A stretch of DNA of 64,000 nucleotides from the NCBI GenBank assembly GCA_050251055.1, contig JBFWNL010000003.1, forward strand, positions 192,001 through 256,000. Direction: 5' to 3'. Origin of the DNA: Bacteriovoracia bacterium. GTDB lineage: Bacteria > Bdellovibrionota > UBA1018 > JBFWNL01. Positions 32,596 to 50,571 of the stretch are shown piece by piece (within the stretch, counting starts at the first letter, position 1; the number at the start of each line of letters is the position of its first letter). The position numbers and the translations under genes are program-made. Under the pieces are notes generated by a model, which was not told where the DNA came from, searched no databases, and saw only the letters and a program-made list of their open reading frames with translations.

Positions 32596-32811
32596 TTAGC
32601 GCGCTTGCGCCGCGGAGGCTGCCTTCACGGCGCCCTTGGTTTCCAGGCGATCCAAAGCATCGATATCGACGTTGTTCTTCAGCATCGCCGCCGTCACTTC
32701 ACAAAACGCCGAGCGAGCGTCGGTCGGGGAAGAAAGCTCTTCCGCGCGGACGCTGATCGCTGCCATATTCAGTCCGAATACCACGATGGCCAACCACAAC
32801 AAGTTTTTCAT
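32596..32811 (-). CDS. Small secreted protein (71 aa), positional analogue of Bdellovibrio hit-locus small proteins
   Basis: Sec signal MKNLLWLAIVVFGLNMAAISVRA, GAGGAG RBS, single Cys, own sigma-54 promoter. Confidence 0.75.
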   Translation of the reverse strand: MKNLLWLAIVVFGLNMAAISVRAEELSSPTDARSAFCEVTAAMLKNNVDIDALDRLETKGAVKAASAAQAR

Positions 32812-32914
32812 GGCTCACTACTCCTCTGTTCTCTGCTTCTTCAACTCTGCTACTACAGCACTGGCGGCTCTTGAGAGTCCCTCTCGGGAGTCACCAGTAG
32901 ATAAGGGTAGGTAG

Positions 32915-32930
32915 TGCAACACCGGTGCCA
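32915..32930 (-). promoter_or_regulatory. Sigma-54 promoter
   Basis: Minus strand TGGCACCGGTGTTGCA, a perfect TGGCAC-N5-TTGCA. Confidence 0.8.
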
Positions 32931-33084
32931 CGTTGACACAGGCCTAGGTCGTCGATCTGTTTGGTTTTTTCCCGGCGCTGGATTTGCGGGGGGTGGGTCG
33001 ATTTCGACAGCCACCGATCAGCTGTAAACTCTTTGATCAGGCGGGGAAGCGGCGGAACGGCGAGAATAGCGTGGGCAGGTTTCC

Positions 33085-33125
33085 AAAAAAACAAAAAGGC
33101 CCACGTGGTACTCCACGTGGGCCCT
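33085..33125 (-). terminator. Rho-independent terminator
   Basis: 11-bp stem GGCCCACGTGG/CCACGTGGGCC with a 4-nt loop and a T run on the minus strand. Confidence 0.85.
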
Positions 33126-33148
33126 ATAGGTAAGTCTAAAACTTTTTA

Positions 33149-33334
33149 TTAGATCGCGGAATCGGCCGCAGGAGCGCCCACCGGAGGCACCGGCACTGGA
33201 GTGCCAGGCTGACCAACGACAGTGGGGGTCTTCACGGTTTCATCGGCGGCTACGGTGCAGTTGCCTTTCACTTCCCCGGCGAAAGCGGGAGCGGCCATCA
33301 CGAGCGCCAAGATCATCAAAGTAATTTTCTTCAT
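33149..33334 (-). CDS. Small secreted Pro-rich, probably disordered protein (61 aa), Hit/Bd0108-like by position
   Basis: Sec signal MKKITLMILALVMAAPAFA, GGAGGAG RBS, single Cys, PGTPVPVPPVGAP tail; directly downstream of the YD-repeat gene. Confidence 0.8.
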   Translation of the reverse strand: MKKITLMILALVMAAPAFAGEVKGNCTVAADETVKTPTVVGQPGTPVPVPPVGAPAADSAI

Positions 33335-33374
33335 AACCAATCTCTCCTCCAAAAAAACCTTCCACCCACTATAA

Positions 33375-33475: not shown

Positions 33476-35194
33476 TCAGAACGAGAGATTCACGCCCGCC
33501 GGACGAATGATATCCAGTAACGTCTGGAACGCCGTCGTGACCTGCATGGCGATTTTCCGTCCCGCCGTGGAATCCACGTTCTTGATCTCGCCCGAATTCG
33601 TATAAGCCACGTTGATCGCGCCCAGTTGGGGATCGGTGATCTTGATCGGCTTGGAGTTCTCGTTGTATTCGAACTTCAGCACGCGGTTGGACTTATCGCG
33701 CATGCGGGCGATGCGGCCCTGGGTATCGTAAAACAGCTGAACGAAACGCGCGTCGGAATCCTTGGCCGTCACCAGATTGCATTTCGGATCGTACTTGAAG
33801 CTCGACCATTTCTTCTTCTGAGTCAGTTTCGAATAGAGCTGAACGTGCGTTACTTTCCCGCAAGATTTGTCGTAAGCCAGGCGCTTCACTTCGGTCGGTC
33901 CGGACTTTTCCGTCACGTGTCCCTTGGTGTCGTACTTGAACGCCGTAACTTCCTTGCCCCGCTTGATCATGATGGGCATGCCGCAGCACTCGTTGAAAAT
34001 GGTTTCGGTGCGATCGCCATCGATCGTCGTGGCCAGGCTGTAATTGTAGAGCTCACCCGTATCCTTGACCTTCATTACGTATTCGTAGGTGCTACGCGAA
34101 ACGACCTTGCCGCCTTTGGTCTTGACGTCCACACCCACGGTGAAGTGATTACGATCGCTGTCCTTGTACTTGTAGCTATACTCGGTCAGCGTACCGTCAC
34201 GATCCTTGAGGCTCTTGACGTTCTGGTTCAGGTCCTTTCCGAAATACTCCACGTTCATGCTCGAGTTGTCGGCATACCCGATCTTCGTCAAGTTGTGCCA
34301 CTGGTCCGTGCTGTATTCGTAAGTGTAGACGTTGGCGTCGGTATCCTTGCAGTAAACCAGCTCGTTCTGCTTATTATACTTATAAACCGCCTTCTTGCCG
34401 TTGAGGCCTTCCACGCTTTCCACCAGGCCTTGGCTGTTGAACGTGAAGTAGATCTTGCGGCTGAAGTTGTCTTCGATCTTGTTGAGGTGATTGTCCTTGC
34501 CGTAGGTAAACACGATGAAGTTATTATTCTTGTCGGTGACCTTGCCCAAACGTCCCGCTTCGTTGAAACGCTCCACGCGTCCGTTATCGAAGCTACGCAC
34601 GTAACCGCCGGCCACTTTCGTCAAAAACTGGTAGCTGAATCGATTCGAGGTAAACTGCGTGCCGTCCTTAACCGTGCGCGCCTTAAGGAGGCCCTTGGCG
34701 ACGAACCCTTCCCAGGTTTCATTCCGGAAGATGGCGTCGGTGCTGAGTTTCTTCTTGAAGGCGTCGATCTGGGCCTTAGCCGTCACCATGCCCTGTTTCT
34801 TGGCCGTCTCGGTGAGGCTGTCGACCGCGGTAGCGAGCTCCGCCTTATTGAAACCGACGGGGGTAAAGCGATTCTGGGCGCCCCCGCCGTACTCGTTCAC
34901 GACCACGCTGCCGTCGGCGGACACCGTGAGGTAAACTTCGTACTCGGTGCCCCAGCCGTAACCGAAGATCCCTTGGAAGCCGGTCTTGGAGTTGTAAACC
35001 CGCTCGACCTTCGGCTCGAATCCGCCGGGATAATAAAGATCGCGGTACGCGACGAAAAAATTACCGTTCTTGAGACTCACGTTCGACGAGGCGGTCGGAG
35101 CCAAGGCCAATCCGAAAACCAATCCCAAGCCGGCGCCGATTTTCGCCGAGCCACGTACCAAGCCAGAAAAATGACGGACCATGATTACCCCCAC
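33476..35194 (-). CDS. Secreted RHS/YD-repeat protein (DUF6531-like N-terminus), no toxin domain
   Basis: Signal peptide; VSLKNGNF, ERVYNS, GIFGYGW; many YD-type repeats (FKYDTKGH, LFYDTQGRI, FEYNENSK); no DPxG cleavage motif before the C-terminus. Confidence 0.88.
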   Translation of the reverse strand: MGVIMVRHFSGLVRGSAKIGAGLGLVFGLALAPTASSNVSLKNGNFFVAYRDLYYPGGFEPKVERVYNSKTGFQGIFGYGWGTEYEVYLTVSADGSVVVNEYGGGAQNRFTPVGFNKAELATAVDSLTETAKKQGMVTAKAQIDAFKKKLSTDAIFRNETWEGFVAKGLLKARTVKDGTQFTSNRFSYQFLTKVAGGYVRSFDNGRVERFNEAGRLGKVTDKNNNFIVFTYGKDNHLNKIEDNFSRKIYFTFNSQGLVESVEGLNGKKAVYKYNKQNELVYCKDTDANVYTYEYSTDQWHNLTKIGYADNSSMNVEYFGKDLNQNVKSLKDRDGTLTEYSYKYKDSDRNHFTVGVDVKTKGGKVVSRSTYEYVMKVKDTGELYNYSLATTIDGDRTETIFNECCGMPIMIKRGKEVTAFKYDTKGHVTEKSGPTEVKRLAYDKSCGKVTHVQLYSKLTQKKKWSSFKYDPKCNLVTAKDSDARFVQLFYDTQGRIARMRDKSNRVLKFEYNENSKPIKITDPQLGAINVAYTNSGEIKNVDSTAGRKIAMQVTTAFQTLLDIIRPAGVNLSF

Positions 35195-35217
35195 GAAAAA
35201 TAACTTTCCTCTCTGTA

Positions 35218-36081
35218 CTATACGTCAATATTGACGATTTTCCTTATGACAAAAGAACCGACGATTAGATTTAACAAGATCCCGAACAGAATGATCCAAC
35301 CAAGATTCGTCTGCACGAGCGGGCTGATGAATTCAGGATCGGTGTAATAAAGCACGAGGCCCATCACGGGAGGGACCGCGAGCAAAATCATGCCTTGGGT
35401 CTTCGCTTGGGCCGTGAGCGCGTCGATCTTGTTTTCCACCTTGATGCGCTCGCGAAGCGTGTTGACGATCGTATCGAAAGTTTCCGCCAAGTTCCCGCCA
35501 GTTTCCTTCAAAATATTGACGGAGGTAACGAACATCTCCACATCGTCAGACTCGACCCGTTTAGACAGGTTCAAAAAGGCCTCCTCGAGCGGAACACCGA
35601 GCTTGTTCTGGCTTAAGATCAAGCTGAACTCCTGCTTAATGGGATTCGGCATTTCGTTCACCACCAAGCCCATGGCTTGACTAATGGATAGACCCGATTT
35701 CATCCCGTTAGCCATCAAGGCAAGGGCGTCGATCATCTGGAGAACGAACTTTTTCACGCGCCGGCCATAGAGATAGTCAACGATGGGCTTGGGCGCGCGC
35801 CACCCCAAGGCGGTTACGGTCGCTCCGAATAAAAACCCCGGGATCACCTTGGGCAAAAGCAATAGGAACACGAGCGCGCCCGAGCCAAAGCTGATTACGA
35901 ACTGCCCCACGAGGATGTAATTTGAAGGCAGCTCCACGAACATGATGGAAAGCTTCTCGACGATGTAGTCGCGGGTTCCCAACGACTGGAAACGCAGCCA
36001 CTCCAAGAAACGTTTGTTGTACGAGTACGTCAGACCGAATGCGGCCACGCCAAACGTCAAGTATGCGATGTACTTCAACAT
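35218..36081 (-). CDS. tadB: Tad pilus platform protein TadB (T2SS F family)
   Basis: DALALMANGMKSGLS, ETGGNLAE, LRERIK..KIDALTAQAK, C-terminal KIVNIDV. Confidence 0.9.
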   Translation of the reverse strand: MLKYIAYLTFGVAAFGLTYSYNKRFLEWLRFQSLGTRDYIVEKLSIMFVELPSNYILVGQFVISFGSGALVFLLLLPKVIPGFLFGATVTALGWRAPKPIVDYLYGRRVKKFVLQMIDALALMANGMKSGLSISQAMGLVVNEMPNPIKQEFSLILSQNKLGVPLEEAFLNLSKRVESDDVEMFVTSVNILKETGGNLAETFDTIVNTLRERIKVENKIDALTAQAKTQGMILLAVPPVMGLVLYYTDPEFISPLVQTNLGWIILFGILLNLIVGSFVIRKIVNIDV

Positions 36082-36090: not shown

Positions 36091-38262
36091 CTATTTCGCC
36101 GCGAACAGACCGCGCGAAATCTTCATGCCCTTGGCTTCCATGTCCTCCACGAACTTCGGAACGAAGCCCGTCGGCACGAAACGACCGAGCACTTTGCGTT
36201 TCTTGTCCAAACCTTCCTGACGGAACTCGAAAATATCCGTGAGGGTAATCACATCGCCCTGCATTCCGTTCACTTCCGTGATCGCCGTAACCTTGCGGGA
36301 CCCGTCGCTCAAACGGCTTTGCTGAATAATCAGATGCACCGCAGAAGCGATGGTTTCCTTGATCGCCTTGGAAGACAAGCCTAGGCCCGCCATCATAACG
36401 AGCGTCTCCAGGCGGGAAATCGCTTCGCGCGGGTTGTTCGCGTGAATGGTCGTGAGTGACCCGTCGTGGCCAGTGTTCATCGCCTGCAGCATGTCCAAAG
36501 CCGCGCCGTCACGGCACTCGCCAACCACGATGCGCTCCGGGCGCATACGCAACGAAGCCTTGACGAGATCGCGGATGGTGACCTCGCCTTCGCCTTCGAT
36601 GTTCTTCGGCCGCGACTCCAGGCGCACCACGTGATCTTGGCCCAGCTGCAACTCGGCGGAGTCCTCGATGGTAATAATGCGCTCGTTCTGCGGAATAAAA
36701 TTAGACAGCACGTTGAGCAGAGTCGTCTTACCGGAGCCGGTGCCCCCGGAAACCACGATATTCAAACGCGCTTCGACGCAGCAGCGCAGAAAGTCGGCGA
36801 TCTCCTGGGTCATGGATCCAAAGCCGATCAGGTCCTTGGCGACGATGCGTTTCTTGGGGAATTTACGGATAGTGATGGTCGGTCCCCGCAAAGCCAGCGG
36901 GGGAATGATGATATGGACGCGAGAGCCATCGGGCAGGCGCGCGTCCACGAAGGGAACCTTTTCATCCACGCGCCGACCGAGCGGGGTGACGATACGCTCG
37001 ATCACGTTGCGCATCTGCAGCTCACTCGAAAACGTCACCTTCGACATCTGCGGCTTGCCGGCGCGTTCGATATAGATCTGATCGCGGGCATTGACCATGA
37101 TTTCCGTCACGCTCTCGTCTGCGAGCAAGTCCTCAAGGGGCCCCAAGCCCAAGGCCTCGTCCAAAACCTCCTTAAGCATCTGGCTTTTCAGCTCGCGCGT
37201 ATTCAGGAGCGTTTCGGTGTCTTCGGTGGCCATGATATCCAGGATGCCCTTACGGGTCTTTTCGTAGAGGATTTTGCGCTGTTTGGGATCGTTGCTTTCG
37301 GTATTGGTGTTCTTGAGATCCATCGTCTCCACCAAGGCCTTGTGGATCCGCAGCTTCATCGCCGTCCAAGGATCAATTGGCGCGGAAAGGCTGCGCCCCC
37401 CCGGCCCGCTTCCTTCGGAAGCCGATCCGCCTTCGGCACCCGCGACATCCTGGGTCTTCAGAAGGGTCTGCGTCTTAGCGACCAGCCCCGTTGGTTTTTT
37501 TAACTGGGACAAGGTCTCGAGCAATTTTCCTTGCTGGATTTTGCGAACCAGGTCGCTGTAGGCACGCGCGATAGGGGCGCTCGGGGCGGCCAGACAGAGC
37601 GGAATGCCTTTGGCGAGCGAACCATCGCACGTCGTGACGTCGTCCGGAATGGCGGCGTAGATCGGTCGGTTCAGATTTTTCTGGATGATCTGCGGATTGA
37701 TGAGGTTCGCCTGCGAATACTTGTTCACGATGATCTGCACCATTTCAGGAGGGAAGAGCAGCTCCTGAATCTTGCCCAAAATGCGCTTGGTCTGGTTGAC
37801 CACGATGACATCCGCGGTAGTCACCACGAAGATCGCGGTAGCGAACTCCAGCGTCTTCATCACGTGCGCGTCCATCGTGCTACCGCAGTCGACCACGACC
37901 AGGCTGAACACGTTCGTGACCGCCTTGAAAAAACGGCCCAGTCCATCCAGATCCAAATCGGCCACCGCAAAGGCTTCGCGAGGCGCGGCTATGTAGCTAT
38001 AGCCCGCCGGTGAGTTAGTCATGTACGGGGCCAGCGTCTTGGGATCGATCGGGCCCGGGGGCATGCGCGTGACGTCGACGATCGACTGCTTCGGGTTTTG
38101 GCCCAAGATGATGTTCTGGTCGCCCAGGCTGTTGAGATCCAGGTCGACGATCAGCGGGCGCTGCTTGAAGTTCTGGAGGTATGCGATTGAAAGGTTGGCC
38201 GCGAGCACGCTCTTGCCCACGCCGCCCTTTCCGCCTACCACCGCTATGATATGACCCGGCAT
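36091..38262 (-). CDS. tadA: Fused TadZ/CpaE-like MinD domain + TadA/CpaF assembly ATPase
   Basis: N-terminal GGKGGVGKS; C-terminal [40 protein letters not shown]. Confidence 0.92.
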
Positions 38263-38270: not shown

Positions 38271-39881
38271 CTATTTCACCTTGACCCGGAAGTTCTTTTC
38301 CAAGTCCTTCGTTCCCTGTGAAGCGTTCGCGATGATCTGGGGGGTGACGAAGATCACGAACTGCGACTTCTTCTTCGAGTAAGCTTTTGAGCGCAGCAAG
38401 CTGAACAACGGACTCGTCGTCGGATTGGCGAATCCGCCCGCGGCCGGGTCGTCCTTATTGAAGTTCGTCTGCACATCCGCCGAATTTACACCCGCCAAAG
38501 CCGCGCTTTCGTTGGATTTGATGTAAACCTTGGTCGTGACCTCATGCTGGGCCGTGATGGGCGCCGTGCCCGCCTTACCGACTAAGTTCGACTGCTTGAG
38601 CTCGAGGTCCATCGAGATATCCTCGCTCTGGCCGACGATCGCCGGGGTAATCTTGAAGGAAATTCCGACCCCTGCGGTGGAGGTGGCGACCTCGCCATTT
38701 GGTCCCTGCACCGCGAACGGAATCTGCGTTTCGTCGCGCAACACGCCAGACTCGCGGTTGCGGATCACGAGGGTACCCGTCTTAAGGATCCGGGCGAAAC
38801 CTGCGTTCTGCGCGCTTTGCAGCTTGGGAAAGAGGCTCGAGAGCGTCGCCGTAAAAGAGGCCGTGGTGGAGCTATCCGCGCCGCTACTACCCGTGCCCGT
38901 GGTGCCCACGGTCACCTGCGGATCGGCGGTGAAGCCGGGCTGCCACTTGAATCCGAAGACGTCTTGGTAGTCTTTGGAGAGCTCCACGAAGTGCACCGTG
39001 ATACGCACCAATTTTTCCTGCTTCTTCTGGGGCGGTGGATTCACGACCATGAAGTTCTGAATGAGGCTTTGCGGAGGCAGGCGCTGCGCGGTGGCGTCGG
39101 CGGCCAGTGCGTTGCCGGGCCGAATCTCCGGAATATATTGGAAAGCGATGCGCTCTACGCGCTTGGCCTGATCGACCCGATCCACGGTTCCTTCAAGCCA
39201 AATACGGCCGTTCACCACGCGAGTGGTAACGTTCGGAGCGATCGCGTTCACGTCCTTCTTGATCCGGTCCGCCAGGTACTGCAGCGCAATTGGCGAGAGC
39301 GTGACGAGGTTCAGGACGTTTTCCCCGTAAGTCTTGTCCGAAAGGATTTGCGATAGGCGCGCGTAGTCGGCGGGGACCAGCACCTCGCCATCGATTACGA
39401 TCTTTGTGCCCATGATGCGCGTCTTAACGCCCTCTACGTCGCGAAGCAGGGCTTCGATTTCAGCCTGTGTTTTCGTGAGGTGGGTCGCCGCCACCTGAAC
39501 GTGGAAAATCAGGCGCAGGTTGCCCTTGTCGTCACGCACGGAAACGTTGGTTTCGCCCGGCTTGAGTGGCTTGAAGATCAGCTGCCGGCGATCGCCGTCA
39601 CTGATGCGCACGAAGGTGGTCTTCACGACGGTCTCGTTACCCGAGGTGATGCCGCCCGGATCCACGTTGGCGTCGAAGTCCAAATCGATCACCCGATCCT
39701 CGCCCTGCACGAGCAGGACTTCGCGCCGGTCCGCATCTCTTTCCGAGCGATCGCTCGTTAGGCGCGGCTTGGCCGGAGGTTTCGCGCCCGAATCCGGCGC
39801 CCAAGCTCCAACACAAACCCAGGCGCACGCCGCCACCGCGACCGCCCACCCAGATTTCAAGCCTTTGCGTCTACTCAACAC
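38271..39881 (-). CDS. cpaC: Tad secretin CpaC/RcpA with BON-like domains
   Basis: KPGETNVSV N-domain, BON-like segments, VHFVELSK, PLFSLLRSK..SKKKSQFVIFVTP. Confidence 0.85.
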   Translation of the reverse strand: MLSRRKGLKSGWAVAVAACAWVCVGAWAPDSGAKPPAKPRLTSDRSERDADRREVLLVQGEDRVIDLDFDANVDPGGITSGNETVVKTTFVRISDGDRRQLIFKPLKPGETNVSVRDDKGNLRLIFHVQVAATHLTKTQAEIEALLRDVEGVKTRIMGTKIVIDGEVLVPADYARLSQILSDKTYGENVLNLVTLSPIALQYLADRIKKDVNAIAPNVTTRVVNGRIWLEGTVDRVDQAKRVERIAFQYIPEIRPGNALAADATAQRLPPQSLIQNFMVVNPPPQKKQEKLVRITVHFVELSKDYQDVFGFKWQPGFTADPQVTVGTTGTGSSGADSSTTASFTATLSSLFPKLQSAQNAGFARILKTGTLVIRNRESGVLRDETQIPFAVQGPNGEVATSTAGVGISFKITPAIVGQSEDISMDLELKQSNLVGKAGTAPITAQHEVTTKVYIKSNESAALAGVNSADVQTNFNKDDPAAGGFANPTTSPLFSLLRSKAYSKKKSQFVIFVTPQIIANASQGTKDLEKNFRVKVK

Positions 39882-39885
39882 GCCG

Positions 39886-42687: not shown

Positions 42688-42892
42688 CAGCAGGAGCCCT
42701 CCCCGTCTTCAAGTTCTTCTCGAAGCTCGCGCCAAACTTCAGGAGCGATTCATCGATGCGCGGAACGATGTTTTGCAAAATAGCCACGGTGGCAACGATG
42801 GCGAAGGTAAGCAGAAAAATGTACTCGAACGTCGCCTGTCCGGCGCGGGCCGATGATTTTTTTGGATTAGAATTTTTAAGGACGCTGTCCAT
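42668..42892 (-). CDS. Flp-like minor pilin
   Basis: AGQATFEY followed by a hydrophobic helix; start at MDSVLK inferred. Confidence 0.75.
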   Translation of the reverse strand: MDSVLKNSNPKKSSARAGQATFEYIFLLTFAIVATVAILQNIVPRIDESLLKFGASFEKNLKTGRAPAGAIWSN

Positions 42893-42957: not shown

Positions 42958-43149
42958 CTACTCCGACATCGCTTCGTCGATCTTTCCACCCAGATCGGTC
43001 GTCGCCTTGGAGATACGACCCGCGATTTCTTTCTTGAAACGCAGGGCGATCAAGACCACGGCGAAGAGAATGAGGATGTACTCCAGCGTCGATTGGCCTT
43101 CCTCGTCGCGGATGAAACTGGCGATTTTCTTTGAAACGAACTTGAGCAT
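42958..43149 (-). CDS. flp: Flp major pilin
   Basis: 63 aa, FIRDEEGQSTLEYILIL; purine-rich RBS AAGGGAGAGAGAGG. Confidence 0.9.
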   Translation of the reverse strand: MLKFVSKKIASFIRDEEGQSTLEYILILFAVVLIALRFKKEIAGRISKATTDLGGKIDEAMSE

Positions 43150-43219: not shown

Positions 43220-43249
43220 AGTATAACTTTATCCGATTATTTGGGTCAA
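43220..43249 (-). promoter_or_regulatory. Putative sigma-70 promoter for flp
   Basis: Minus strand TTGACC-N18-TATACT in the AT-rich gap upstream of flp. Confidence 0.55.
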
Positions 43250-44011: not shown

Positions 44012-46527
44012 AATCCCGACCCTCCCGCCGGCGCATGTCCACCTTCGCCTTCCGACTTGAAACGGTCGAAGCGGCTGATGCGATTACGCGCGCGCTCGTA
44101 ATAGATATCGTCTTGAGGAGCGATGTTCATGGTTTCCGCGTACTTCCGCTTGGCCATCTCGAAATCGCTATAGCTTTCAGCGATGATCGCCTCCGAGTAC
44201 GCGAGCTTCGCGCGCTGGTGGAGCACCCCACGGATCCGCTCCATCCCCTTAAATCCCGTCTGATCCCTGGGATCGATCTTGGTCGCCCGTTCGTAGAGCT
44301 TAAACGCCTGCACTAAATCGCCGCCTTCCTCGGCGGACTTCGCCTGCTCGAGCACGGGATCGAGTAGGGCCTTCAGCGAAGCCAGGCATTCGGCGATGCG
44401 GGACTTTGCGCGCGCGAGCAGCTTGCGGTCAGTGGCTCCCAGATCGTTGATCTGACGGTAGGCGCCCACGGCCGAGAGATATCGTCCTCGCTTCTGGAGC
44501 TTCTGGCCATCCCGATAGATGCGCCAGGCGTTTCCATTGATGGCCTGGCGATCCTTGCGAGCCTGTTCTTCTTGCGCGATTTTCTCCAGATGATCCCGGA
44601 TCACCTGCTCCCACTGGGCCAACTGCTTGTTGTCCGGGTCAAGCTGCAGGATTTCCGGGAATACTGCCTTGGCATCCTCGTACTTCTCGGCCGCCATGAG
44701 CTTTCCAACCGCGTCTACGAGCTCGGCCACGCGCAGCCGGATGCGCTCCTGCTCTTCGCGGCGGCGCTTTTCCTCTTCTTTATCCTGCATCCGCTTCTTG
44801 CCTTCGCGCGCGTAGCGCTCGATGTCGCGCGAATCCTCGTAGTCGTCGACGACCTCGAATATTTTCGCAACTTCATACAGCGCCTTATCGAACTCGCCGT
44901 TCTTGTAGTGATCGAACGCGAGCGTGTGGTGCGATTTTACGAATTCCTTCTTGTCGGGACTGAGCTTATCGAAGGACGGCTTTCCCTTCGCGGCTCCCGG
45001 CGCGGTGGCGGTCTTCGCCGCTGGTTTTGCTGGCGCGGACGGCTCTTCCTCGTAGTCCAGGAGGGAGAACAGGATTACCAGGCCGACGATACCAACGATC
45101 ACGCGCCGACGCGGAGGCATCTCGCGGAACTGCTCGACCAAGCTCTTTCTGCCCTTCGGGGCGCCCAGGCCCGGAATCGGTCCGGCGCCGAAGGCCGCCA
45201 TCGGGTCCGCTCCCATGCCGCCCACGGGCGCGCCGACGATCTCGGGTTGAAAATCCAGCCCCGAGGGAGAAGCGTAGTTCTGCCCCCCGGCCGTGAGCTG
45301 TAGGCCGCCATCGGCGCGGGAAAAGCCGGCGGAAACGCCCGGCGGGCCGTCCTGCTCTTCGGGCTCATCCGGGACGGTCATGAAATCATTTTGTTTCGCC
45401 TGATAGTCCGCGCTCAAAGCTTGGAAATGGCAATACACGTCGCCGACCCGAATCTCGTCATCTCCGGTCAGCTCCTGCTCGGTCACGCGCACGCCGTTTA
45501 CGTACGTGCCGTTGGATGAGCCGAGGTCTTTAATGATGAAACGTATGCCTTCGCGCCGGATCGTGGTGTTCTTGCGCGAGGATTTCTTGTCATTCAAGAC
45601 GATATCGCAGTTCTTGCCGCGGCCCAAGACGACCTCGTCCTGGGTGATCTCGAATTCCCGTACGTTGGCGGCGCCCGGAGCAAAAACCAGTTTGGCGCGC
45701 AGTTTACCCGTGGCGGCGACCCGGGTATTCCCGTCGTTCACGTCGGCGGGCACGAACTCCGTGCCCGTGCGGGCCGCGGGCGTTCCGGCACCCGACATCT
45801 CTCCACCCTCGAGATTCACTTCGAGCGGGGCTTCGCCGCTGGAGGCACCGATGCCCTTGCTGAACTCCTCGAGCGAAAGGGGGCCGTTGCTGGAAGAAGC
45901 CGCCGCCGAGCTTTCCGGCGAGCCATTCAAGTTCGCGAACGGATCGGAGGCGGGCTCTCCGCTCGCGGCTAGATCAGGATCTGGATCGGCGGATGCTTCC
46001 GCAGGGGCGGCGAAATCGCCCGGAGGATCAAGATTCTCCGCCGGGAACTGATTGGACGGGAAGTCTTTCGGCGTCTCGACCGGGGTTCCGAATTCACTGG
46101 CTACGGGCAGGGTCGCTCCGGAAGGCGCGGCCGAGACCGTGGGCAAGTCCATGGGCGGAAGCGGATCGGGCGTCGGGGAAGGCTCCGCCAAGGAACGCGT
46201 ACCGGCCCGCGGCGAAACGTTGCCTTCCTGAATCGCGGCGGCAACCTGAATGAGGAAGGGGCCGATATTGATAACGTCGCCACCCTTGAGCACGGCCTTC
46301 GTGCATTCCAGCCCATTCACCGACAGCGGCGCAAAGCCGCTTTTCTTTTCGACCTGGATGCCGCCTTCGGAGGGGCGGACGACGGCGTGCTGGCGCGAAA
46401 CCATGCGGTGATCCAGCCGGATCACGCAGCCGGCATCCCGCCCGATCGCTAATTCGCGATCGACCGGAATTTCCTGGATCATTTCGCCGTCCCGCAGGAC
46501 GGTCAGCTTCGCGGCTCCCATCCTCAC
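44008..46527 (-). CDS. FHA-FHA-TM-TPR membrane protein
   Basis: Two FHA domains (IGRDAGC..SRQH; LGRGKNC..SSNGT) separated by a Pro-rich linker, one TM, C-terminal TPR-like helices. Confidence 0.88.
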   Translation of the reverse strand: MRMGAAKLTVLRDGEMIQEIPVDRELAIGRDAGCVIRLDHRMVSRQHAVVRPSEGGIQVEKKSGFAPLSVNGLECTKAVLKGGDVINIGPFLIQVAAAIQEGNVSPRAGTRSLAEPSPTPDPLPPMDLPTVSAAPSGATLPVASEFGTPVETPKDFPSNQFPAENLDPPGDFAAPAEASADPDPDLAASGEPASDPFANLNGSPESSAAASSSNGPLSLEEFSKGIGASSGEAPLEVNLEGGEMSGAGTPAARTGTEFVPADVNDGNTRVAATGKLRAKLVFAPGAANVREFEITQDEVVLGRGKNCDIVLNDKKSSRKNTTIRREGIRFIIKDLGSSNGTYVNGVRVTEQELTGDDEIRVGDVYCHFQALSADYQAKQNDFMTVPDEPEEQDGPPGVSAGFSRADGGLQLTAGGQNYASPSGLDFQPEIVGAPVGGMGADPMAAFGAGPIPGLGAPKGRKSLVEQFREMPPRRRVIVGIVGLVILFSLLDYEEEPSAPAKPAAKTATAPGAAKGKPSFDKLSPDKKEFVKSHHTLAFDHYKNGEFDKALYEVAKIFEVVDDYEDSRDIERYAREGKKRMQDKEEEKRRREEQERIRLRVAELVDAVGKLMAAEKYEDAKAVFPEILQLDPDNKQLAQWEQVIRDHLEKIAQEEQARKDRQAINGNAWRIYRDGQKLQKRGRYLSAVGAYRQINDLGATDRKLLARAKSRIAECLASLKALLDPVLEQAKSAEEGGDLVQAFKLYERATKIDPRDQTGFKGMERIRGVLHQRAKLAYSEAIIAESYSDFEMAKRKYAETMNIAPQDDIYYERARNRISRFDRFKSEGEGGHAPAGGSGL

Positions 46528-47528
46528 GTATCTCCCTTGATGGCCTTACTGACCTTCACGAGTTGGTCCTTGGCCTCGATGTAATACGGGCTCGCCTGGT
46601 CGCGATAAAGCAAACGCAAGATAGCTTCGTAATGCCCCTTGGACTCGCGAAGTTTTCCCGACTCGTAACCCTTTAGACCGCGATCCAGATGGAATTTCAC
46701 TTCCTCTTGAATGGCCTTGTCGCAGTTTTGCAGGTAAAGATTGGAAAGCTTGTGGCCGGGGCTGACTTGCAGCGCGGTTTCGAACTGCACCTTGGCCCGC
46801 AAGTAATTTCCCGCCTGATACTCCTTGAACCCAGCCTTAAAGAACATCGTCGCCGTCTTGTTGACTTCGGGCGAATCGTCGGGCGGAAGGAGCGAGGCTA
46901 AGTCGCGGGCTTCCACCGAGGTCGTGCGTTTCTTGCGCTTCTGGACCTGTTCGCCTTCCGTTCCCACCAGGAAATAAAGGAGCGCGCCCAAAGCGCCGTA
47001 AATCAGCAACCGCCGCTGGCCGGCGGGATTCAAGTTTGGCCGGGCCACCGCCGCCTTCATCGCCTCGCCGCCGCCAAAACTCGTCATCGCGCGGATGCGT
47101 TGGCGATGAGCATCGAGCGCCGCCTGATCCGCTTTCATCTGGGCGGGACTCTTCGCCGGAGCCTTGAGCATGAGAGTGTTGGAATCGCTGGCCGCCATGA
47201 ATTCCAGCACGGTCTCGCCGATGGTCACGGTGTTACCGGTGCGCACATCGGCGATCTTAGCCTCGTTTCCGTTGAGCAGGATCCCGTTCGCGCTGCCGAG
47301 ATCACGTACTTTCCAACCGCCTGGGACGGCGATGAACTCTGCGTGTTGCCGGGAGGACTTTAAATCCGAGATCATCACGTCGCAGGTCTCACCCCGCCCG
47401 ACCGTCGCCCGCGCACCGGTGACGACGAAAATCGCGCCGTAGTCAGGCCCCTGAATGACCTTAAGCCGCATCAACTCGCCGGGCTGGCGGGGAAGGCTGT
47501 TTTGTCGGAAGCGCGTGGCGTTTGGCAT
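46524..47528 (-). CDS. FHA-TM-TPR membrane protein
   Basis: VGRGETCD..SRQH..SANG; TM LLIYGALGALLYFLV; TPR-like FKAGFKEYQAGNYLRA. Confidence 0.88.
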   Translation of the reverse strand: MPNATRFRQNSLPRQPGELMRLKVIQGPDYGAIFVVTGARATVGRGETCDVMISDLKSSRQHAEFIAVPGGWKVRDLGSANGILLNGNEAKIADVRTGNTVTIGETVLEFMAASDSNTLMLKAPAKSPAQMKADQAALDAHRQRIRAMTSFGGGEAMKAAVARPNLNPAGQRRLLIYGALGALLYFLVGTEGEQVQKRKKRTTSVEARDLASLLPPDDSPEVNKTATMFFKAGFKEYQAGNYLRAKVQFETALQVSPGHKLSNLYLQNCDKAIQEEVKFHLDRGLKGYESGKLRESKGHYEAILRLLYRDQASPYYIEAKDQLVKVSKAIKGDT

Positions 47529-47532
47529 ATCC

Positions 47533-49191
47533 CTACGCTTCCTCCTCTGCCCGGATGACGGAGAACACGAATCCTGCCGGCGTGCCCATGCCCACGGCGA
47601 CGCCCGAAACCTTGTAATTGATACCGGCCATCTCGGTCTCTTCGGTGATGGTCAGGCCGACCGAAGCCGAGGCTTGGCCAAGCATGTCCTCGAACAGGAC
47701 GCCAAGCGCCTGGTCGCGCGCGACGCTCGTGATGGGCTGCCCCACGGCTTCGTGCGAATGTATACCGCTCAACTCCTCGAAAAACGGGTTGATATACGCG
47801 ATGGCTTTGTCCCGATCGAAGACCACGACGCCACTTCGGGCGGAGGCTCCCAGGACCTTGAGTCCTTCCAAGTAGGCCTCTAGGCTCGCGGCGGCCGCGC
47901 CACCGCCGCCGCCCGCGCCGTCCGAACCCGTGCCCAATTCATGGGGAACTCGTTGAAGCGCGGAGTTGATGACATCCCAGAGCTGGTTCAGCTCCGAGCG
48001 CTTGAATTCACGCGTCACCTGACTCATATCGCCCTTCAATACTTTGTCGATATCGTCGTTGAGGATCTCGAGCGGCTTCAACGTCAGGCGGTAAACCGCG
48101 AAGAAAATCAGCGCTCCTACCGCCAGTAGGGCGATCAGCGTCTTGGAATAAATCATGCCCACGTCCCCGCCGGATGGGGTGGACAACGTGGTGTCGATCG
48201 AGACTACCGCCATGGCCACGATGGCGTTGCGGCCGGTCTGCGGATCCAACACCTTCAGCGGCTCCACCGCCACCACGGTTTCGTCGTCCGCGCGGACCAC
48301 GTAGCCCGACTCGGCTCCCCCCGCAGTATAGCGCTTGGCGGCTTTCGCCGCGACCACGCCCTCGGGCGCCGCCGTAAGATACTGATTGAGTTTTTTCGAG
48401 GGCGCCAGGATGCGGTTGCGCAGGTCGATCAACACGGCCTCTCGCACCCCGTCTTCATTCTCGAGGTTTCCGATAATTGTTTTGGTTTCCGCATTGGCCG
48501 CGATGTAGGCGGAGTTTTTCTCCACGATCTCGCGCGCCAAGGCCGCCGCGCGCTTACCGGTTTCCTTCACGACCGCGACCTCGTTCAGCTCAAGCAGCGG
48601 ATACACGGAAATAAATAGATTAAGAAATGCGAAGGCCGTGAAGAGGGAGATGCAGATCACCCGCCACTCGTGCCGCAGATTCAGGCCGTAAAACACCGGC
48701 ATCACGAATTTTTCGAAATACCAACCCGCCTTGCCCAGGGGATCGGTCGGAATCCCCTGACCCATGCCCTCGAAGCCGCTGCCCAGTCCGACGCCGCCCG
48801 CGTTCGGAGGCGCCGAAGCGGGGCCACCCGAGGTTTTCTGCGAGGGAAACTGAATCACGTTGCCGAAGTCGGCGATCGCGGGTGCCTGCAAAGAATTCTT
48901 CACGACCGGCGTGCGGATCTCCATGACGTACTCGCCGACGCTGATCTTGTCACCGGAAGCGATTTTCTTTACCTTGGTGAGGATGCCGTTGACGAAAGTG
49001 CCGTTGGAGCTGCCCTCATCGCGCACGGTGATCTCGCCGTTATCGACGACGAGCACGCAATGGGTTTTGGAAACACGCTGGGATGGCAACACAATCACGT
49101 TGCCGTCTTGACGGCCGATCGAGTTCCTGCCCTTTTGAAGGACGTAACTCGTTCCGCGATTTGGTCCTGACACGACGGTCAGTTTATACAT
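47533..49191 (-). CDS. FHA-TM-periplasmic-TM-HAMP-PAS protein without output domain
   Basis: IGRQDGN..SKTH..SSNGT; two TMs; HAMP-like LKPLEILN..SELNQL; PAS-like GVVVFDRDKAIAYINPFFEELSG. Confidence 0.8.
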   Translation of the reverse strand: MYKLTVVSGPNRGTSYVLQKGRNSIGRQDGNVIVLPSQRVSKTHCVLVVDNGEITVRDEGSSNGTFVNGILTKVKKIASGDKISVGEYVMEIRTPVVKNSLQAPAIADFGNVIQFPSQKTSGGPASAPPNAGGVGLGSGFEGMGQGIPTDPLGKAGWYFEKFVMPVFYGLNLRHEWRVICISLFTAFAFLNLFISVYPLLELNEVAVVKETGKRAAALAREIVEKNSAYIAANAETKTIIGNLENEDGVREAVLIDLRNRILAPSKKLNQYLTAAPEGVVAAKAAKRYTAGGAESGYVVRADDETVVAVEPLKVLDPQTGRNAIVAMAVVSIDTTLSTPSGGDVGMIYSKTLIALLAVGALIFFAVYRLTLKPLEILNDDIDKVLKGDMSQVTREFKRSELNQLWDVINSALQRVPHELGTGSDGAGGGGGAAAASLEAYLEGLKVLGASARSGVVVFDRDKAIAYINPFFEELSGIHSHEAVGQPITSVARDQALGVLFEDMLGQASASVGLTITEETEMAGINYKVSGVAVGMGTPAGFVFSVIRAEEEA

Positions 49192-49604
49192 ACTTCATCC
49201 CCCGCGCTGACTCCGCAGCGCTGGATCGTTCCCAATGGCAACTCGAGCGTCTCCGTCGCCCGGAAGTCCGCCACCGGGAGCAATTTCCACGGACGCACGT
49301 TCTCGCGCACCGAGGAAACTTCCCAGCGGTCTCCCGCCCGGCGAATAAACACGACGTCGATCGGCATCCGCATGAACCACATGTGGATGTTGTTGCAACG
49401 AGGGAAGAACATGCCTTCCCCCGCATTCAACGTCGCGCGACCGATGAGCCCCACTAGGCGCTCCAGAAAACGCTCGGCCACGATACACTTTTCGGCTAGA
49501 ACGGCTTTGTTTTTGAGGGTTTGGATGGTGACGCGGCGAGATTTGTCGCGGGCGCGGACGGCGCCGGCTGAGTTTTGACGGTCGATACCGCTCATTTCCG
49601 CCAT
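49179..49604 (-). CDS. DUF192 family protein
   Basis: VAERFLERLVGLIGR, IHMWFMRMPIDVVF, TLELPLG. Confidence 0.88.
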   Translation of the reverse strand: MAEMSGIDRQNSAGAVRARDKSRRVTIQTLKNKAVLAEKCIVAERFLERLVGLIGRATLNAGEGMFFPRCNNIHMWFMRMPIDVVFIRRAGDRWEVSSVRENVRPWKLLPVADFRATETLELPLGTIQRCGVSAGDEVCIN

Positions 49605-49632
49605 AAACTTGACGTCTCCCCTGTCCGCGCGT

Positions 49633-50571
49633 TTAAAACGGCGAACCCTCGCCGCTCATGAACTGCAGGATCACCGGCCCCAGGATCATCGCGACCACCG
49701 AGGGCATCACGAAAATGACGGTGGCGATGATGAGCTTCGGTCCGGCGGCCGCGCCCGCCTTCTCCGCGCGGGTGAACCGCTCGTTACGAATCTGTTCCGA
49801 CTGCTGGCGCAGGGTGCGCCCGATCGACGCGCCCATCTGATCCGCCGAAACCAAGATTGCGACGAAGGAGTTCACCTCCGACATGTCGATTCGAATCGCC
49901 ATTTCCCGCATAGCCTCACCGCGCGAGGAACCGACTTTGATCTCTTTTAAAAGCTGCTCGAATTCTTCTACCAGCGGACTGGGCGCGGCCTTTTCGACGA
50001 CCTTGCCGATAGCGCCGATAAAATCCAGACCCGCCTCGGTCGAGAGCGCGAGGAGATCCACGATGAACGGCATCGCGTTGCGGATCTTCTTCTGTCGCTG
50101 CTCGATGCGGCTTTTGATCCAGATATCCGGGTAAAACCAGCCAAAAATCGCGGAAAGCACCGAATAGTACCAATCCACCTCGGTCTCGCCCACGTAGCGC
50201 ACCAAAAGCAGGATGACCGGAAAGAAGCCGATCAGGAACATCTTGAACGCGATGAACTCGTCGGCCGTAAGCTCGTTCTTCAGGCCCGCCGTCACGAGCT
50301 TGCGGCGATAGTGCTTGCGCTTCACATCCCAGAACGCCTTACCCCGGATGATGGGCACGAGGTACTGGGAAAAGAACGGGCGCGTGAGCGCCACGAGGGG
50401 ATTGGAGGCCTTGCGGTTCCGGTTTTCCTCGAGGTTTTCCTCCGCCGCCCGCGCCTCCTGCTCTTTTAGAAGCAGATACGAGACGTAGAACACCCCCACG
50501 CCGATGAGCGCATAAGCCGCATAGATTACGAGACTGCCACCACCGATCAGTGAATACATAATCCTACCCAC
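49633..50571 (-). CDS. tadC: Tad pilus platform protein TadC (start 50559 or 50571)
   Basis: MPFIVDLLALSTEAGLDF, GSSRGEAM, ADQMGASI, RAEKAG. Confidence 0.9.
   Translation of the reverse strand: MGRIMYSLIGGGSLVIYAAYALIGVGVFYVSYLLLKEQEARAAEENLEENRNRKASNPLVALTRPFFSQYLVPIIRGKAFWDVKRKHYRRKLVTAGLKNELTADEFIAFKMFLIGFFPVILLLVRYVGETEVDWYYSVLSAIFGWFYPDIWIKSRIEQRQKKIRNAMPFIVDLLALSTEAGLDFIGAIGKVVEKAAPSPLVEEFEQLLKEIKVGSSRGEAMREMAIRIDMSEVNSFVAILVSADQMGASIGRTLRQQSEQIRNERFTRAEKAGAAAGPKLIIATVIFVMPSVVAMILGPVILQFMSGEGSPF

Follow-up and report, generated by a model that had tools for sequence, protein, structure and literature searches.

The 64,000-nucleotide stretch of DNA analysed here (the window) carries the chromosomal Tad/Flp pilus locus (type IVc, Kil-like) of an uncultured Bdellovibrionota bacterium, which probably belongs to the class UBA1018 or lies near it. 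The locus is best explained as two adjacent operons of a Kil-like Tad system in which the pilus machine has a transmembrane accessory complex made of three FHA proteins, a reading that we consider likely. Among 80 relatives surveyed, the joined layout seen in the window is the majority state and apparently also the older one, split arrangements being derived.

All 19 ORFs of the cluster are co-oriented on the minus strand between positions 50571 and 32596, with plus-strand genes on both sides (BrkB-like, 50649-51488; response regulator, 31466-31870). At E<=0.01, Pfam returned matches in 14 of the 19 proteins: T2SSF twice (tadC and tadB), DUF192, Peptidase_A24, RcpC with SAF, Secretin with BON, RHS_repeat with DUF6531, PP2C_2, T2SSE with a ParA/MinD-type domain in one protein, and FHA in three proteins, with two copies in the one of 839 aa, besides matches of lower score. 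Flp1_like, TadE, PAS and the TPR of the 334-aa protein scored under the Pfam cut-offs, and five proteins (flp85, pil115, tadE170, sp80 and sp71) had no match in the scan: in flp85, pil115 and tadE170 a hydrophobic helix comes after the prepilin motif G/Q(S/A)xxE(Y/F), and sp80 and sp71 have signal peptides. Intergenic gaps range from -20 to +35 nt, except at the PP2C/flp63 (+106), flp63/flp85 (+65) and RHS/sp80 (+141) joints. The initial annotation had listed 19 co-oriented genes with their domains and order, and had placed the FHA genes between tadC and the other tad genes on the tadB side; the ORFs, Pfam, TIGR03177 and the gene order bear out both descriptions.

The first predicted operon (50571-43256) encodes TadC, a DUF192 protein, three FHA membrane proteins and a PP2C-like protein, and is tightly packed, with overlaps of 4-13 nt. 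At its head stands tadC (49633..50571), coding for an inner-membrane platform protein of 312 aa (T2SSF E 1.5e-17) with three hydrophobic segments; 39/47 loci have an orthologue, 47-72% identical. The DUF192 protein that follows (49179..49604; 141 aa; Pfam E 4.1e-17) is present in 43/47 loci and matches the uncharacterised proteins of PDB 3pjy and 3m7a. FHA552 (47533..49191) combines an N-terminal FHA domain (E 9.5e-15) with a WalK-like sensor module composed of a TM segment, a periplasmic alpha/beta domain, a second TM segment, HAMP-like helices and PAS (AF2 mean pLDDT 83.9), and its top Foldseek match is the WalK model 9a5d (E 7.5e-15). The HAMP/PAS assignment proposed initially for this protein thus stands on the AF2 model and the WalK likeness, whereas the Pfam scores do not carry it. 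FHA552 has no kinase domain, and no kinase extension was seen in the best 150 of 210 family representatives (E<=1e-30); one homologue, from a Bdellovibrio sp., shows 27% identity (E 2e-43). FHA334 (46524..47528) has an FHA domain (E 8.4e-13), a weak hydrophobic segment near residues 173-189 and a short TPR-like C-terminal domain (TPR_2 under cut-off), and FHA839 (44008..46527) has two FHA domains (E 2.9e-26, two stretches), long disordered linkers, a single TM segment (472-490) and a C-terminal TPR (TPR_2 28.2 bits). In the models, the TPR regions of both proteins would lie beyond the hydrophobic segment, in the periplasm. The last gene (43256..44011) encodes the PP2C-like protein of 251 aa (PP2C_2 28.2 bits, cut-off 24).

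The second predicted operon (43149-33149) runs from the prepilins through the small secreted protein sp80. Its pilin section opens with two Flp-type prepilins: flp63 (42958..43149; Flp1_like E 8.1e-7, under the cut-off), with G/QSTLEY and a hydrophobic helix, and flp85 (42668..42892), with G/QATFEY, which starts either at TTG 42925 (85 aa) or at ATG 42892 (74 aa) and finds matches in 46/47 loci. They are followed by the prepilin peptidase gene cpaA/tadV (42136..42687; Peptidase_A24 E 5.3e-15), in which both Asp motifs can be recognised and which occurs in 36/47 loci, and by a third prepilin-like gene, pil115 (41843..42145; G/QAIFEY), whose ORF opens at TTG 42190 and which occurs in 37/47. Next come a minor pilin, tadE204 (41221..41835; TadE 22.6 bits, cut-off 22.9), and a minor pilin-like protein, tadE170 (40725..41237), both with G/QSVLEF and each present in 46/47 loci. 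The core machine consists of cpaB/rcpC (39886..40725; TIGR03177 155.8 bits, cut-off 71; RcpC and SAF); the secretin cpaC/rcpA with BON (38271..39881; Secretin E 1.5e-13, BON E 3.7e-4), found in 44/44 loci; tadZA (36091..38262); and the platform gene tadB (35218..36081; T2SSF E 2.5e-17), found in 43/44, its absence in locus L063 probably being an ORF-calling artefact. The 723-aa product of tadZA, a single ORF, fuses a ParA/MinD-like TadZ (CbiA, residues 6-211) to a TadA ATPase (T2SSE, 371-648), and all 44 of 44 loci have an orthologue (66-78% identity, 100% coverage). Behind tadB, in all 44 of 44 loci, lies a gene for a secreted, Rhs-core-like YD-repeat protein (33476..35182; 568 aa from ATG), the counterpart of Bd0109. 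It is followed by sp80 (33149..33334), a small, Cys-containing, Pro-rich secreted protein of 61 aa from ATG that is probably disordered. This is the positional counterpart of Bd0108: about 39 of the 43 loci have a similar ORF no more than 300 nt from the YD-repeat gene, and BLAST detected no similarity between sp80 and its positional counterparts, even among close relatives.

Each of the two units has its own promoter-like site. Five nt ahead of the tadC start codon GTG (50571) lies CCGATAA (50576..50582, minus strand), which we take to be a sigma-28-like -10 element. Of 31 related loci, 16 have CCGATA no more than about 21 nt before tadC; in random 150-nt windows its frequency is 3.2%. The true tadC start may be ATG 50559. 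The 106-nt gap before flp63 contains a sigma-70-like promoter (TTGACC-18 nt-TATACT, 43220..43249, minus strand), the top promoter match of the region with 10/12 positions, and a similar motif is found in the PP2C/flp gap of 25/53 loci (background 0.8%). At the other end, the highest-ranked site in the terminator scan is a hairpin (33096..33125, minus strand) with a 13-bp stem, nine G-C pairs and a T tail, beginning 24 nt past the sp80 stop. Since the second small secreted protein, sp71 (32596..32811), is placed 337 nt beyond sp80 and behind this terminator-like hairpin, the unit most likely ends near 33096. The membership of sp71 is doubtful; related ORFs with one aligned Cys occur in seven related loci. 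The cluster had been described at first as one unit that included both secreted peptides; these signals point instead to two operons, with sp80 inside and sp71 outside.

The survey of relatives supports the view that the FHA genes and the pilus genes belong together. FHA module counts were limited to the 47 species (loci) whose upstream flank measures at least 9.3 kb, and in 44 of them FHA552, FHA334, FHA839 and PP2C lie co-oriented directly upstream of flp; PP2C and FHA839 are present in 52 of the 56 loci with at least 4 kb. This layout is kept although FHA839 identities are only 30-43%. Because it recurs in so many related species, the joined layout is far beyond chance and is not unique to the window: the wording of the initial annotation, in which the modules are fused 'here', overstates this as a peculiarity, but its proposal that tad and FHA genes form one functional unit gains real support from the adjacency of FHA/PP2C and flp, the FHA genes being linked to tad in the relatives. 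The cluster is split at the PP2C/flp joint in four of the 56 loci (L020, L052, L057 and L071), as well as in Bdellovibrio bacteriovorus HD100. The four correspond to two nested clades in a 63-row TadZA tree that has contiguous loci on either side of its midpoint; the split state takes two changes there. Both the natural splits at this joint and the promoter-like site before flp indicate that linkage in cis is dispensable.

Compared by published domain descriptions and by the Bdellovibrio sp. homologue of FHA552, the window cluster is colinear with two separate HD100 loci, bd0470-0475 (tadC and FHA genes) and bd0119-0108 (tad locus 1 and the hit locus). In that strain the gene for TadC (Bd0470) is not part of tad locus 1 (preprint section 5; eLife supplement 2), and the initial annotation was therefore right about a separate tadC/FHA locus. 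As published, bd0470-0475 form one operon of six genes that includes FHA proteins; Bd0473 carries FHA, and Bd0474 has the layout FHA-FHA-TM-TPR, which is also that of its counterpart FHA839. The second locus shares with the window the order flp, minor pilins, CpaB, secretin, TadZA, TadB, YD-repeat and small secreted protein, as well as the TadZ-TadA fusion ATPase published for Bd0111; bd0108-bd0111 are co-transcribed, and Bd0108 binds Bd0109. Apart from being contiguous, the window differs in having a prepilin peptidase and three Flp-type genes, and in a flp promoter that looks sigma-70-like, whereas that of flp1 in HD100 is FliA-dependent.

Could the FHA/PP2C genes be an independent signalling operon (for instance in polarity, gliding or the cell cycle) that merely sits beside tad, with tadC as its sole true pilus gene? 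Three observations would fit: flp has a promoter-like site of its own in the window and in 25/53 loci, the halves are unlinked in HD100 and the four split loci, and Bd0474 binds Bd0075, which is encoded elsewhere. We nevertheless regard this as unlikely: the co-oriented adjacency has persisted through deep divergence, a core platform gene heads the same packed operon, and FHA genes flank kil genes in Myxococcus xanthus too. Moreover, mutants of Bd0470 and of Bd0474 are both defective in predation: a Bd0470 transposon mutant does not attach, and a Bd0474 mutant attaches but its prey is neither killed nor rounded, placing the need for Bd0474 after attachment. [quoted passage not shown] The conserved linkage supports, at the level of genome comparison, an FHA module that belongs to the pilus machine.

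Control by phosphothreonine signalling, for which the initial annotation argued, is a candidate mechanism only. Pfam scores FHA about equal to the phospho-independent cytoplasmic domain of the T3SS protein YscD (Yop-YscD_cpl) in all three proteins, and YscD (4a0e, 4d9v) is among the Foldseek matches. The FHA proteins could then be structural inner-membrane ring or alignment parts like T3SS SctD/YscD/PrgH, with the PP2C-like protein as a non-catalytic partner; MXAN_4649 is annotated as PrgH-like, and no protein kinase family was matched among the window proteins scanned against Pfam. The PP2C site is also degenerate. Three acidic metal-site residues are replaced in the window copy (V, H, Q): GDSR D->V and SDG D->H in the alignment with tPphA, and DN D->Q as read off the sequence. 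Among orthologues the SDG Asp is kept in 30/46, the DN Asp in 21/46 and the GDSR Asp never. Against this, the PP2C motifs ED and DGFGG are nearly invariant, and the pThr-contacting GR / S(R/K)xH / SNG residues are conserved in at least 90% of 47-53 sequences in all four FHA domains (for FHA334, GR/SRxH/SxNG in at least 90% of 49). To our knowledge, YscD is without these residues. The nearest structures to the FHA domain of FHA552 are, moreover, the pThr-binding GarA, OdhI and FhaA (target-normalised TM-scores 0.86-0.97). A purely structural role is therefore rather improbable.

The YD-repeat gene raises another question. Its RHS_repeat and DUF6531 matches, its top Foldseek matches to T6SS Rhs effectors and the small gene directly behind it, as in Rhs toxin/immunity pairs, might suggest a toxic cargo sent into prey by the pilus, with an immunity factor downstream. 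However, the protein, at 568 aa, covers roughly one third of an Rhs shell (TM-score 0.33, target-normalised; AF2 pLDDT 87.7), the DPxG[LW] cleavage motif is found in none of 45 sequences, and the C-terminal 68 residues, instead of being variable, rank with the most conserved (column identity 0.78); a toxin-type Rhs is ruled out on the last two grounds. Its signal peptide sets the small protein apart from cytoplasmic immunity proteins, and Bd0109 and Bd0108 are published as periplasmic regulators of the pilus and the growth switch. A cargo role is thus scarcely credible: the protein is a short, conserved, non-toxin form, and 'RHS' brings no killing payload.

The M. xanthus Kil system (MXAN_3102-3108, MXAN_4648-4661) is likewise a Tad-like machine with a single ATPase and several linked FHA and FHA+TPR proteins, whose genes adjoin the platform genes KilH and KilG and flank kilH/kilG and kilF. 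TadG, RcpB and TadD are published as missing from Kil, and neither TadD pilotin nor TadG was found in the window's cluster. The two differ in that KilF has an N-terminal FHA where the window ATPase carries TadZ, in that kil genes lie in two clusters in another order, and in that the published kil gene table is without the YD-repeat/small-secreted pair, DUF192 and the PP2C-like gene. FG-1 (locus L036) and FG-2 (locus L007), two magnetotactic Bdellovibrionota MAGs of class UBA1018 ('Bdellonasia'), keep the window order from DUF192 through the YD-repeat gene; TadZA of FG-2 is 76% identical to that of the window, and tadC is inverted in FG-2. The Kil synteny of FG-1 is already drawn in Fig. 6 of PMC13200544, whose text makes no mention of FHA and speaks of a Kil system 'as described in HD100'. 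With the canonical Aggregatibacter tad and Caulobacter cpa loci the window shares the Flp pilin motif (G/XXXXEY), TadV, TadE/F-like minor pilins, RcpC/CpaB, secretin, TadA, TadB and TadC; unlike them, it has TadZ fused to TadA, tadC moved to the head of the FHA operon, neither TadD nor TadG, and the added FHA/PP2C module and YD-repeat gene. An analogy drawn in the eLife discussion concerns T6SS PpkA / PppA / Fha1, where an FHA protein and a PP2C-type phosphatase accompany an envelope-spanning, contact-fired machine; in contrast, the window has no linked kinase gene, its PP2C site is degenerate, and its FHA proteins are membrane proteins with sensor or TPR parts outside the cytoplasm according to the models.

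In most bacteria, the role of Tad pili is adhesion. A non-predatory bacterium with an ordinary pilus for adhesion or surface sensing would agree with one paper's statement that some class members may not live by predation alone, and the organism is uncultured; for this last reason we infer predation from orthology with B. bacteriovorus genes. B. bacteriovorus requires its pilus to stay attached to prey and to invade it, and the combination of TadZA fusion, FHA module and YD-repeat/small-secreted pair marks its predation locus. All relatives with organism names are, in addition, Bdellovibrionota, and a non-predatory pilus seems very unlikely.

In the mechanism that we propose, the three FHA proteins would form the transmembrane accessory complex. 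Their sensor and TPR parts, periplasmic in the models, would sense or touch either the envelope or the machine on its secretin/CpaB side. In the cytoplasm, the FHA domains would bind phosphothreonines that a Ser/Thr kinase encoded elsewhere has set, and the PP2C-like protein may reset these sites or only bind them. TadZA, TadB and TadC would thereby be licensed to assemble the pilus or to drive its activity. Among the closest related species, a Tad locus that keeps its FHA genes is the rule.

Nineteen open reading frames, all on the minus strand and bordered by plus-strand genes on either side, run from position 50571 down to 32596. Pfam searches (E ≤ 0.01) gave matches in 14 of the 19 proteins. 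T2SSF domains occur in TadC (49633-50571) and TadB (287 aa; 35218-36081), giving two GspF-like platform proteins, and a DUF192 domain is present in one protein. FHA domains occur in three proteins, named here by their length (FHA552, FHA334 and FHA839), the last with two copies, which makes four domains. Further matches identify a PP2C-like protein (PP2C_2, 28.2 bits, cut-off 24), CpaB/RcpC (RcpC and SAF; the NCBIfam model TIGR03177 scores 155.8 bits, which exceeds the cut-off of 71), a secretin (BON and Secretin, the latter with E 1.5e-13), a YD-repeat protein (RHS_repeat and DUF6531) and a TadV-type prepilin peptidase (Peptidase_A24, E 5.3e-15), in which two catalytic Asp motifs were read from the sequence against what we take to be the TadV consensus. 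A single 723-aa protein, TadZA, carries a ParA/MinD-type domain (residues 6-211) and a T2SSE domain (371-648, E 1.2e-66); as a TadA-type ATPase it scored 321.9 bits with TIGR03819 (NCBIfam), under the cut-off of 373. Scores for Flp1_like, TadE, PAS and the TPR of FHA334 were also under the curated Pfam cut-offs.

The five proteins with no Pfam match are flp85, pil115, tadE170, sp80 and sp71. The first three, two Flp-type prepilins and a minor pilin, show the prepilin motif G/Q(S/A)xxE(Y/F) followed by a hydrophobic helix, and the last two are small proteins with signal peptides. In all, the motif, which agrees with the Flp signature G/XXXXEY, is found in five proteins of the locus. Neither a TadD pilotin nor TadG was detected among the 19 proteins with Pfam and NCBIfam. 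The locus encodes a Tad/Flp (type IVc) system: ATPase, TadB and TadC, CpaB, secretin, Flp and TadV are all present. Neighbouring genes overlap or lie at most 35 nt apart, except at the PP2C/flp63 (+106), flp63/flp85 (+65) and YD-repeat/sp80 (+141) junctions. The initial annotation had listed 19 co-oriented genes, and ORFs, Pfam matches, motifs and spacing all bear this list out. Across the 64-kb window, Rfam gave no match at its gathering threshold and ARAGORN no tRNA.

Several other genes of the window deserve mention. On the plus strand, 1342-10841 encodes a 1097-aa protein without Pfam match and two large subtilases (1103 and 566 aa); with the OmpA-domain protein that follows at 11047-12384, these genes may form a secreted protease set. 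At 22501-24636 (plus strand), a ParA/MinD-type ATPase of 416 aa that has a long N-terminal extension adjoins a DnaJ plus HTH_25 protein, and is a second MinD-like protein close to the TadZ-bearing locus. Two sigma-54 activators are encoded on the minus strand (16601-20106 and 61270-62889), one with a histidine kinase partner and the other with a PocR-like sensory domain.

The best non-self matches of CpaB share 62-64% identity, and those with a name are almost all from Bdellovibrionota MAGs, one being labelled simply 'bacterium'. A scan with a CpaB alignment over one genome per species (GTDB r232) returned 223 relatives, of which the best 80 (46-63% identity) were analysed and are designated here by L numbers; B. 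bacteriovorus is not among these 80. A few odd labels aside, they are Bdellovibrionota MAGs, including UBA1018 (L006), FG-2 (L007), FG-1 (L036) and CAIRTR01 (L013), which all belong to the class UBA1018 / 'Bdellonasia' (PMC13200544). The closest TadZA is that of L006 (79%). One contig labelled as a Nitrosovibrio MAG (L029) bears a typical Bdellovibrionota tad locus that nests among Bdellovibrionota in the TadZA tree, and is probably mis-binned.

ORFs were called in the 80 loci and each was assigned by BLASTP to the best-matching window protein. The upstream flank could be judged in 47 loci with at least 9.3 kb before cpaB and, for the nearest genes, in 56 loci with at least 4 kb; the other 24 are too short. 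In 44 of the 47 loci, FHA552, FHA334, FHA839 and the PP2C-like gene are co-oriented and directly upstream of flp. DUF192 was found in 43 of these 47 and tadC in 39, co-oriented in 36 and inverted in three (L007, L013, L030). With at least 4 kb upstream, PP2C and FHA839 are present in 52 of 56 loci. On the other side, the secretin, TadZA and YD-repeat genes each occur in all 44 loci with at least 7 kb downstream, and tadB in 43, its absence from L063 being probably an ORF-calling artefact. The initial annotation had proposed a synteny survey of this kind and had presented the joined layout as a trait of this locus; the FHA genes are indeed linked to tad in most of these relatives, and the joined layout turns out to be the common one among those examined.

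Four loci are split (L020, L052, L057, L071), with unrelated genes upstream of flp, such as pst-phoU in L020 and exbB/exbD with a TPR gene in L052. On a TadZA tree (63 rows, quick IQ-TREE, LG+G4, midpoint root), the split state corresponds to two changes, one in the clade (L052,(L057,L071)), with SH-aLRT 96, and one in L020, within a starred clade; contiguous loci are found on both sides of the midpoint. As the tree has no outgroup, the polarity of the split state is an argument from parsimony only. Neighbouring genes are partly syntenic, with a convergent response regulator downstream in 16 loci and BrkB-like/orf300 genes upstream, and the region therefore fits a chromosomal segment inherited vertically. 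In the window, 31466-32590 (plus strand) holds this convergent stand-alone response regulator (134 aa), then two small ORFs without Pfam match.

The gene content varies in other respects. The prepilin peptidase gene is missing from 12 loci (L005, L028, L030, L034, L037, L038, L042, L059, L072, L076, L077, L078), most of which also have no flp63, and in which the FHA module is still joined to the tad genes; this subgroup parallels Bdellovibrio, in none of whose genomes TadV is reported to be present. The most labile gene of the cluster is tadC, divergent in the three loci with an inverted copy and missing from the flank, despite available room, in at least two others (L032 and L054).

In B. bacteriovorus HD100, the available text of one report (10.64898/2026.07.08.737194) describes a tad locus 1 with a TadZA fusion, a TadC encoded apart, no TadV in the tad loci, nearby TPR, FHA, PAS, PilZ and histidine-kinase genes, and a tadG standing alone elsewhere. 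One supplement (eLife 2021, supplement 2) identifies TadB with Bd0110, the ATPase with Bd0111, the secretin with Bd0112, CpaB with Bd0113, a TadE-like protein with Bd0115, flp with Bd0117/0119 and the orthologue of KilH/TadC with Bd0470. Bd0470-0475 are described as one operon, in which Bd0473 carries an FHA domain; in Bd0474, two FHA domains on the cytoplasmic side are joined through a membrane helix to a TPR domain outside the cytoplasm, and Bd0475 is a hypothetical protein predicted to bind Bd0473 (PMC12034629, available text). The separate tadC/FHA locus of B. bacteriovorus, mentioned in the initial annotation, is thus documented. Gene count agrees, as do the architectures of Bd0470, Bd0473 and Bd0474 in the published descriptions through which the HD100 genes were matched; the window locus therefore corresponds to bd0470-0475 joined head-to-tail to bd0119-0108. 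The TadZA fusion is common to both genomes, whereas the tadC/FHA genes lie apart in HD100 and are joined here. The most direct sequence check is a homologue with the full architecture of FHA552, named Bdellovibrio sp. SKB1291214 (27% identity over residues 1-417, E 2e-43).

Phenotypes have been reported in B. bacteriovorus. A Bd0470 transposon mutant does not attach, and a Bd0474 mutant attaches without killing or rounding prey (PMC6561027), Bd0474 being required for the step that follows attachment. The Tad machine is located at the invasive pole, and lasting attachment and invasion depend on it (10.64898/2026.07.08.737194). From the hit locus, co-transcription of bd0108-bd0111 has been described, as has the secreted YD-repeat protein Bd0109, which binds the small secreted Bd0108 (PMC3818213).

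The candidate counterpart of this hit-locus pair lies directly after tadB, where the secreted YD-repeat gene is found in the window and in 44/44 loci. Within 300 nt downstream of it, an ORF of 59-104 aa for which a loose criterion indicated a signal peptide was present in 41 of 43 loci; two of these look false on inspection, leaving about 39. Most of these ORFs have a single Cys, and their tails are rich in small, polar residues; none of 44 showed BLAST similarity to sp80. Location, signal peptide and composition agree with Bd0108 in about 39/43 loci, and the ORFs are its positional counterparts, without sequence likeness among the loci. A complex prediction for YD-repeat residues 32-568 with mature sp80 scored 0.15 (mark 0.32) and speaks neither for nor against binding. 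Further on, sp71 (32596-32811, minus strand) resembles ORFs of seven related loci, located 400-640 nt after the YD-repeat gene (L005, L014, L055, L063, L066, L074, L075); all eight ORFs have a signal peptide and one aligned Cys, with little else in common.

In the AF2 model of the YD-repeat protein (pLDDT 87.7, pTM 0.77), the signal peptide is followed by a beta domain, a three-helix insert, the YD hairpin array and a C-terminal helix. Rhs polymorphic toxins have a full shell of some 1000 residues or more, a DPxGL motif for cleavage and a C-terminal toxin that varies, and we considered whether the protein belongs with them. At 568 aa it spans about one third of solved Rhs shells (target-normalised TM-score 0.33), the motif DPxG[LW] occurs in 0/45 orthologues, and across these 45 few parts are as well conserved as the C-terminus. 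The missing motif and the conserved C-terminus therefore show that it is not a polymorphic toxin.

The transcriptional organization of the locus was examined with promoter and terminator scans. Among the sigma-70-like sites of the region, the best match (TTGACC, 18 nt, TATACT; 43249-43220) lies in the 106-nt gap upstream of flp63, and the strongest terminator-like hairpin (33125-33096, 13-bp stem) begins 24 nt past the sp80 stop. The total of sigma-70 promoters equals chance (5, for a shuffle mean of 5.3); the scan carries weight only through where its best site lies and through the return of this site in related loci. A TTGAC-N17-20-TAxAxT/TATxxT motif is found in the PP2C/flp gap of 25/53 related loci, against 0.8% of random windows. 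Likewise CCGATA, the core of a sigma-28 -10 element, is found in the roughly 21 nt before tadC in 16/31 loci, against 3.2% of random windows. These recurrent promoter-like sites and the hairpin after sp80 therefore point to two adjacent predicted operons, from tadC to PP2C and from flp63 to sp80. The single contiguous unit of the initial annotation holds in so far as the genes are adjacent and co-oriented; it divides into two operons, and sp71, 337 nt beyond sp80, falls on the far side of the terminator-like hairpin. Two loci have an extra ORF without Pfam match exactly at the PP2C/flp joint (L011, 5849-7501, 550 aa; L026, 6607-7674, 355 aa). By consensus match, the flp promoter of the window is sigma-70-like, whereas flp1 is described as FliA-dependent in B. 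bacteriovorus and B. exovorus (PMC5430801, available text); the difference may be genuine.

What the FHA module might do is suggested by its domains. The GR, S(R/K)xH and SNG pocket residues are kept in at least 90% of orthologues (n = 47, 49 and 53) in all four FHA domains, with Asn at the His position in the second domain of FHA839. With these Gly-Arg, Ser-x-x-His and Asn-Gly residues, the domains are predicted to bind phosphothreonine. In its AF2 model (mean pLDDT 83.9), FHA552 starts with an FHA domain, a disordered linker and a membrane helix that is prolonged as a long helix. Next come an alpha/beta domain, another membrane helix, HAMP-like helices and finally a PAS domain. The alpha/beta domain between the membrane helices can be read as periplasmic. 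By Foldseek, FHA552 is closest to a WalK model (9a5d, E 7.5e-15, 416 columns), and its FHA part can be superposed on GarA, OdhI and FhaA. A search of 1.84 billion representatives gave 210 matches at E ≤ 1e-30. Nearly all of the 150 best ones are 510-585 aa long and match over the whole length, and these 150 include no kinase extension or histidine-kinase fusion. They therefore form a stable family of sensor modules in which FHA is the sole other domain, and FHA552 is a sensor module without output domain.

In the PP2C-like family (n = 46), ED and DGFGG are nearly invariant, while the Asp of GDSR is found in 0/46 orthologues, that of SDG in 30/46 and that of DN in 21/46. The window copy has ED and DGFGG, with D replaced by V in GDSR, by H in SDG and by Q in DN; it thus lacks three of the acidic metal-binding residues of an active PP2C (PPM), and the PP2C-like partner is, judging from these residues, often degenerate. 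No protein kinase family had a Pfam match among the window proteins scanned. A serious variant, by analogy with SctD of the T3SS, is that the FHA proteins would act as a phospho-independent scaffold, which is to be weighed with the conserved pocket residues on one hand and the often degenerate phosphatase-like partner on the other.

In the phosphothreonine-based mechanism that we propose as the most likely, the three FHA proteins would assemble into an accessory complex that spans the membrane and serves the pilus. Within it, FHA552 would sense an envelope or periplasmic cue, and the TPR domains of FHA334 and FHA839 would make periplasmic contacts. An unlinked kinase would produce the phosphothreonine sites to which the FHA domains bind, and the PP2C-like protein would remove these marks, or merely bind them where degenerate. 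The outcome would be an assembled or active TadZA/TadB/TadC motor.

A related arrangement is known from M. xanthus, where kilH/kilG and kilF have FHA and FHA+TPR genes as neighbours (eLife supplement 1), and where TadD and TadG are reported missing from the Kil system (eLife 2021). The Kil-like subclass has several linked FHA proteins (Seef et al. 2021); the window locus has three. The Kil ATPase carries an N-terminal FHA fusion, whereas that of the window has a ParA/MinD-type TadZ instead, like B. bacteriovorus. A bolder reading would go further: the FHA trio and the PP2C-like protein would be an ancestral, integral transmembrane sub-complex of the Tad machines of predators that replaces TadD-type parts and couples contact to TadZA docking, the B. 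bacteriovorus and M. xanthus splits being derived. We offer this reading tentatively, as possible if somewhat doubtful. If true, the FHA/PP2C proteins would be integral and more than a neighbouring regulator; their inner-membrane-anchored periplasmic TPR/sensor domains would stand in for the TadD-type pilotin and alignment parts that are missing; prey-envelope contact would be coupled to phosphothreonine-gated TadZA docking; and the split loci would be fragments of one machine, with the flp-promoter joint as a natural breakpoint.

We found no published text placing the FHA/tadC operon beside the tad locus in other Bdellovibrionota, although figures or supplements may depict it. The TAD loci of eight BALOs were drawn without mention of FHA or tadC (Avidan 2017), and the FG-1 locus has been drawn (PMC13200544, Fig. 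6) with a text that leaves out FHA, which the figure, tables or Data S3 may show. All components have been described before in B. bacteriovorus, and most of the relatives examined share the layout; the window is one further example and no new kind of system, and the comparative insight is modest. It concerns the tadC/FHA operon and the main tad locus of B. bacteriovorus, so far studied as two loci. The FHA genes stand directly before the pilin genes, in the same order, in 44/47 relatives at about 35% protein identity; this kept adjacency therefore argues, on comparative grounds, that they are part of the pilus machine, and it provides a defined gene set and a natural breakpoint for bench work.
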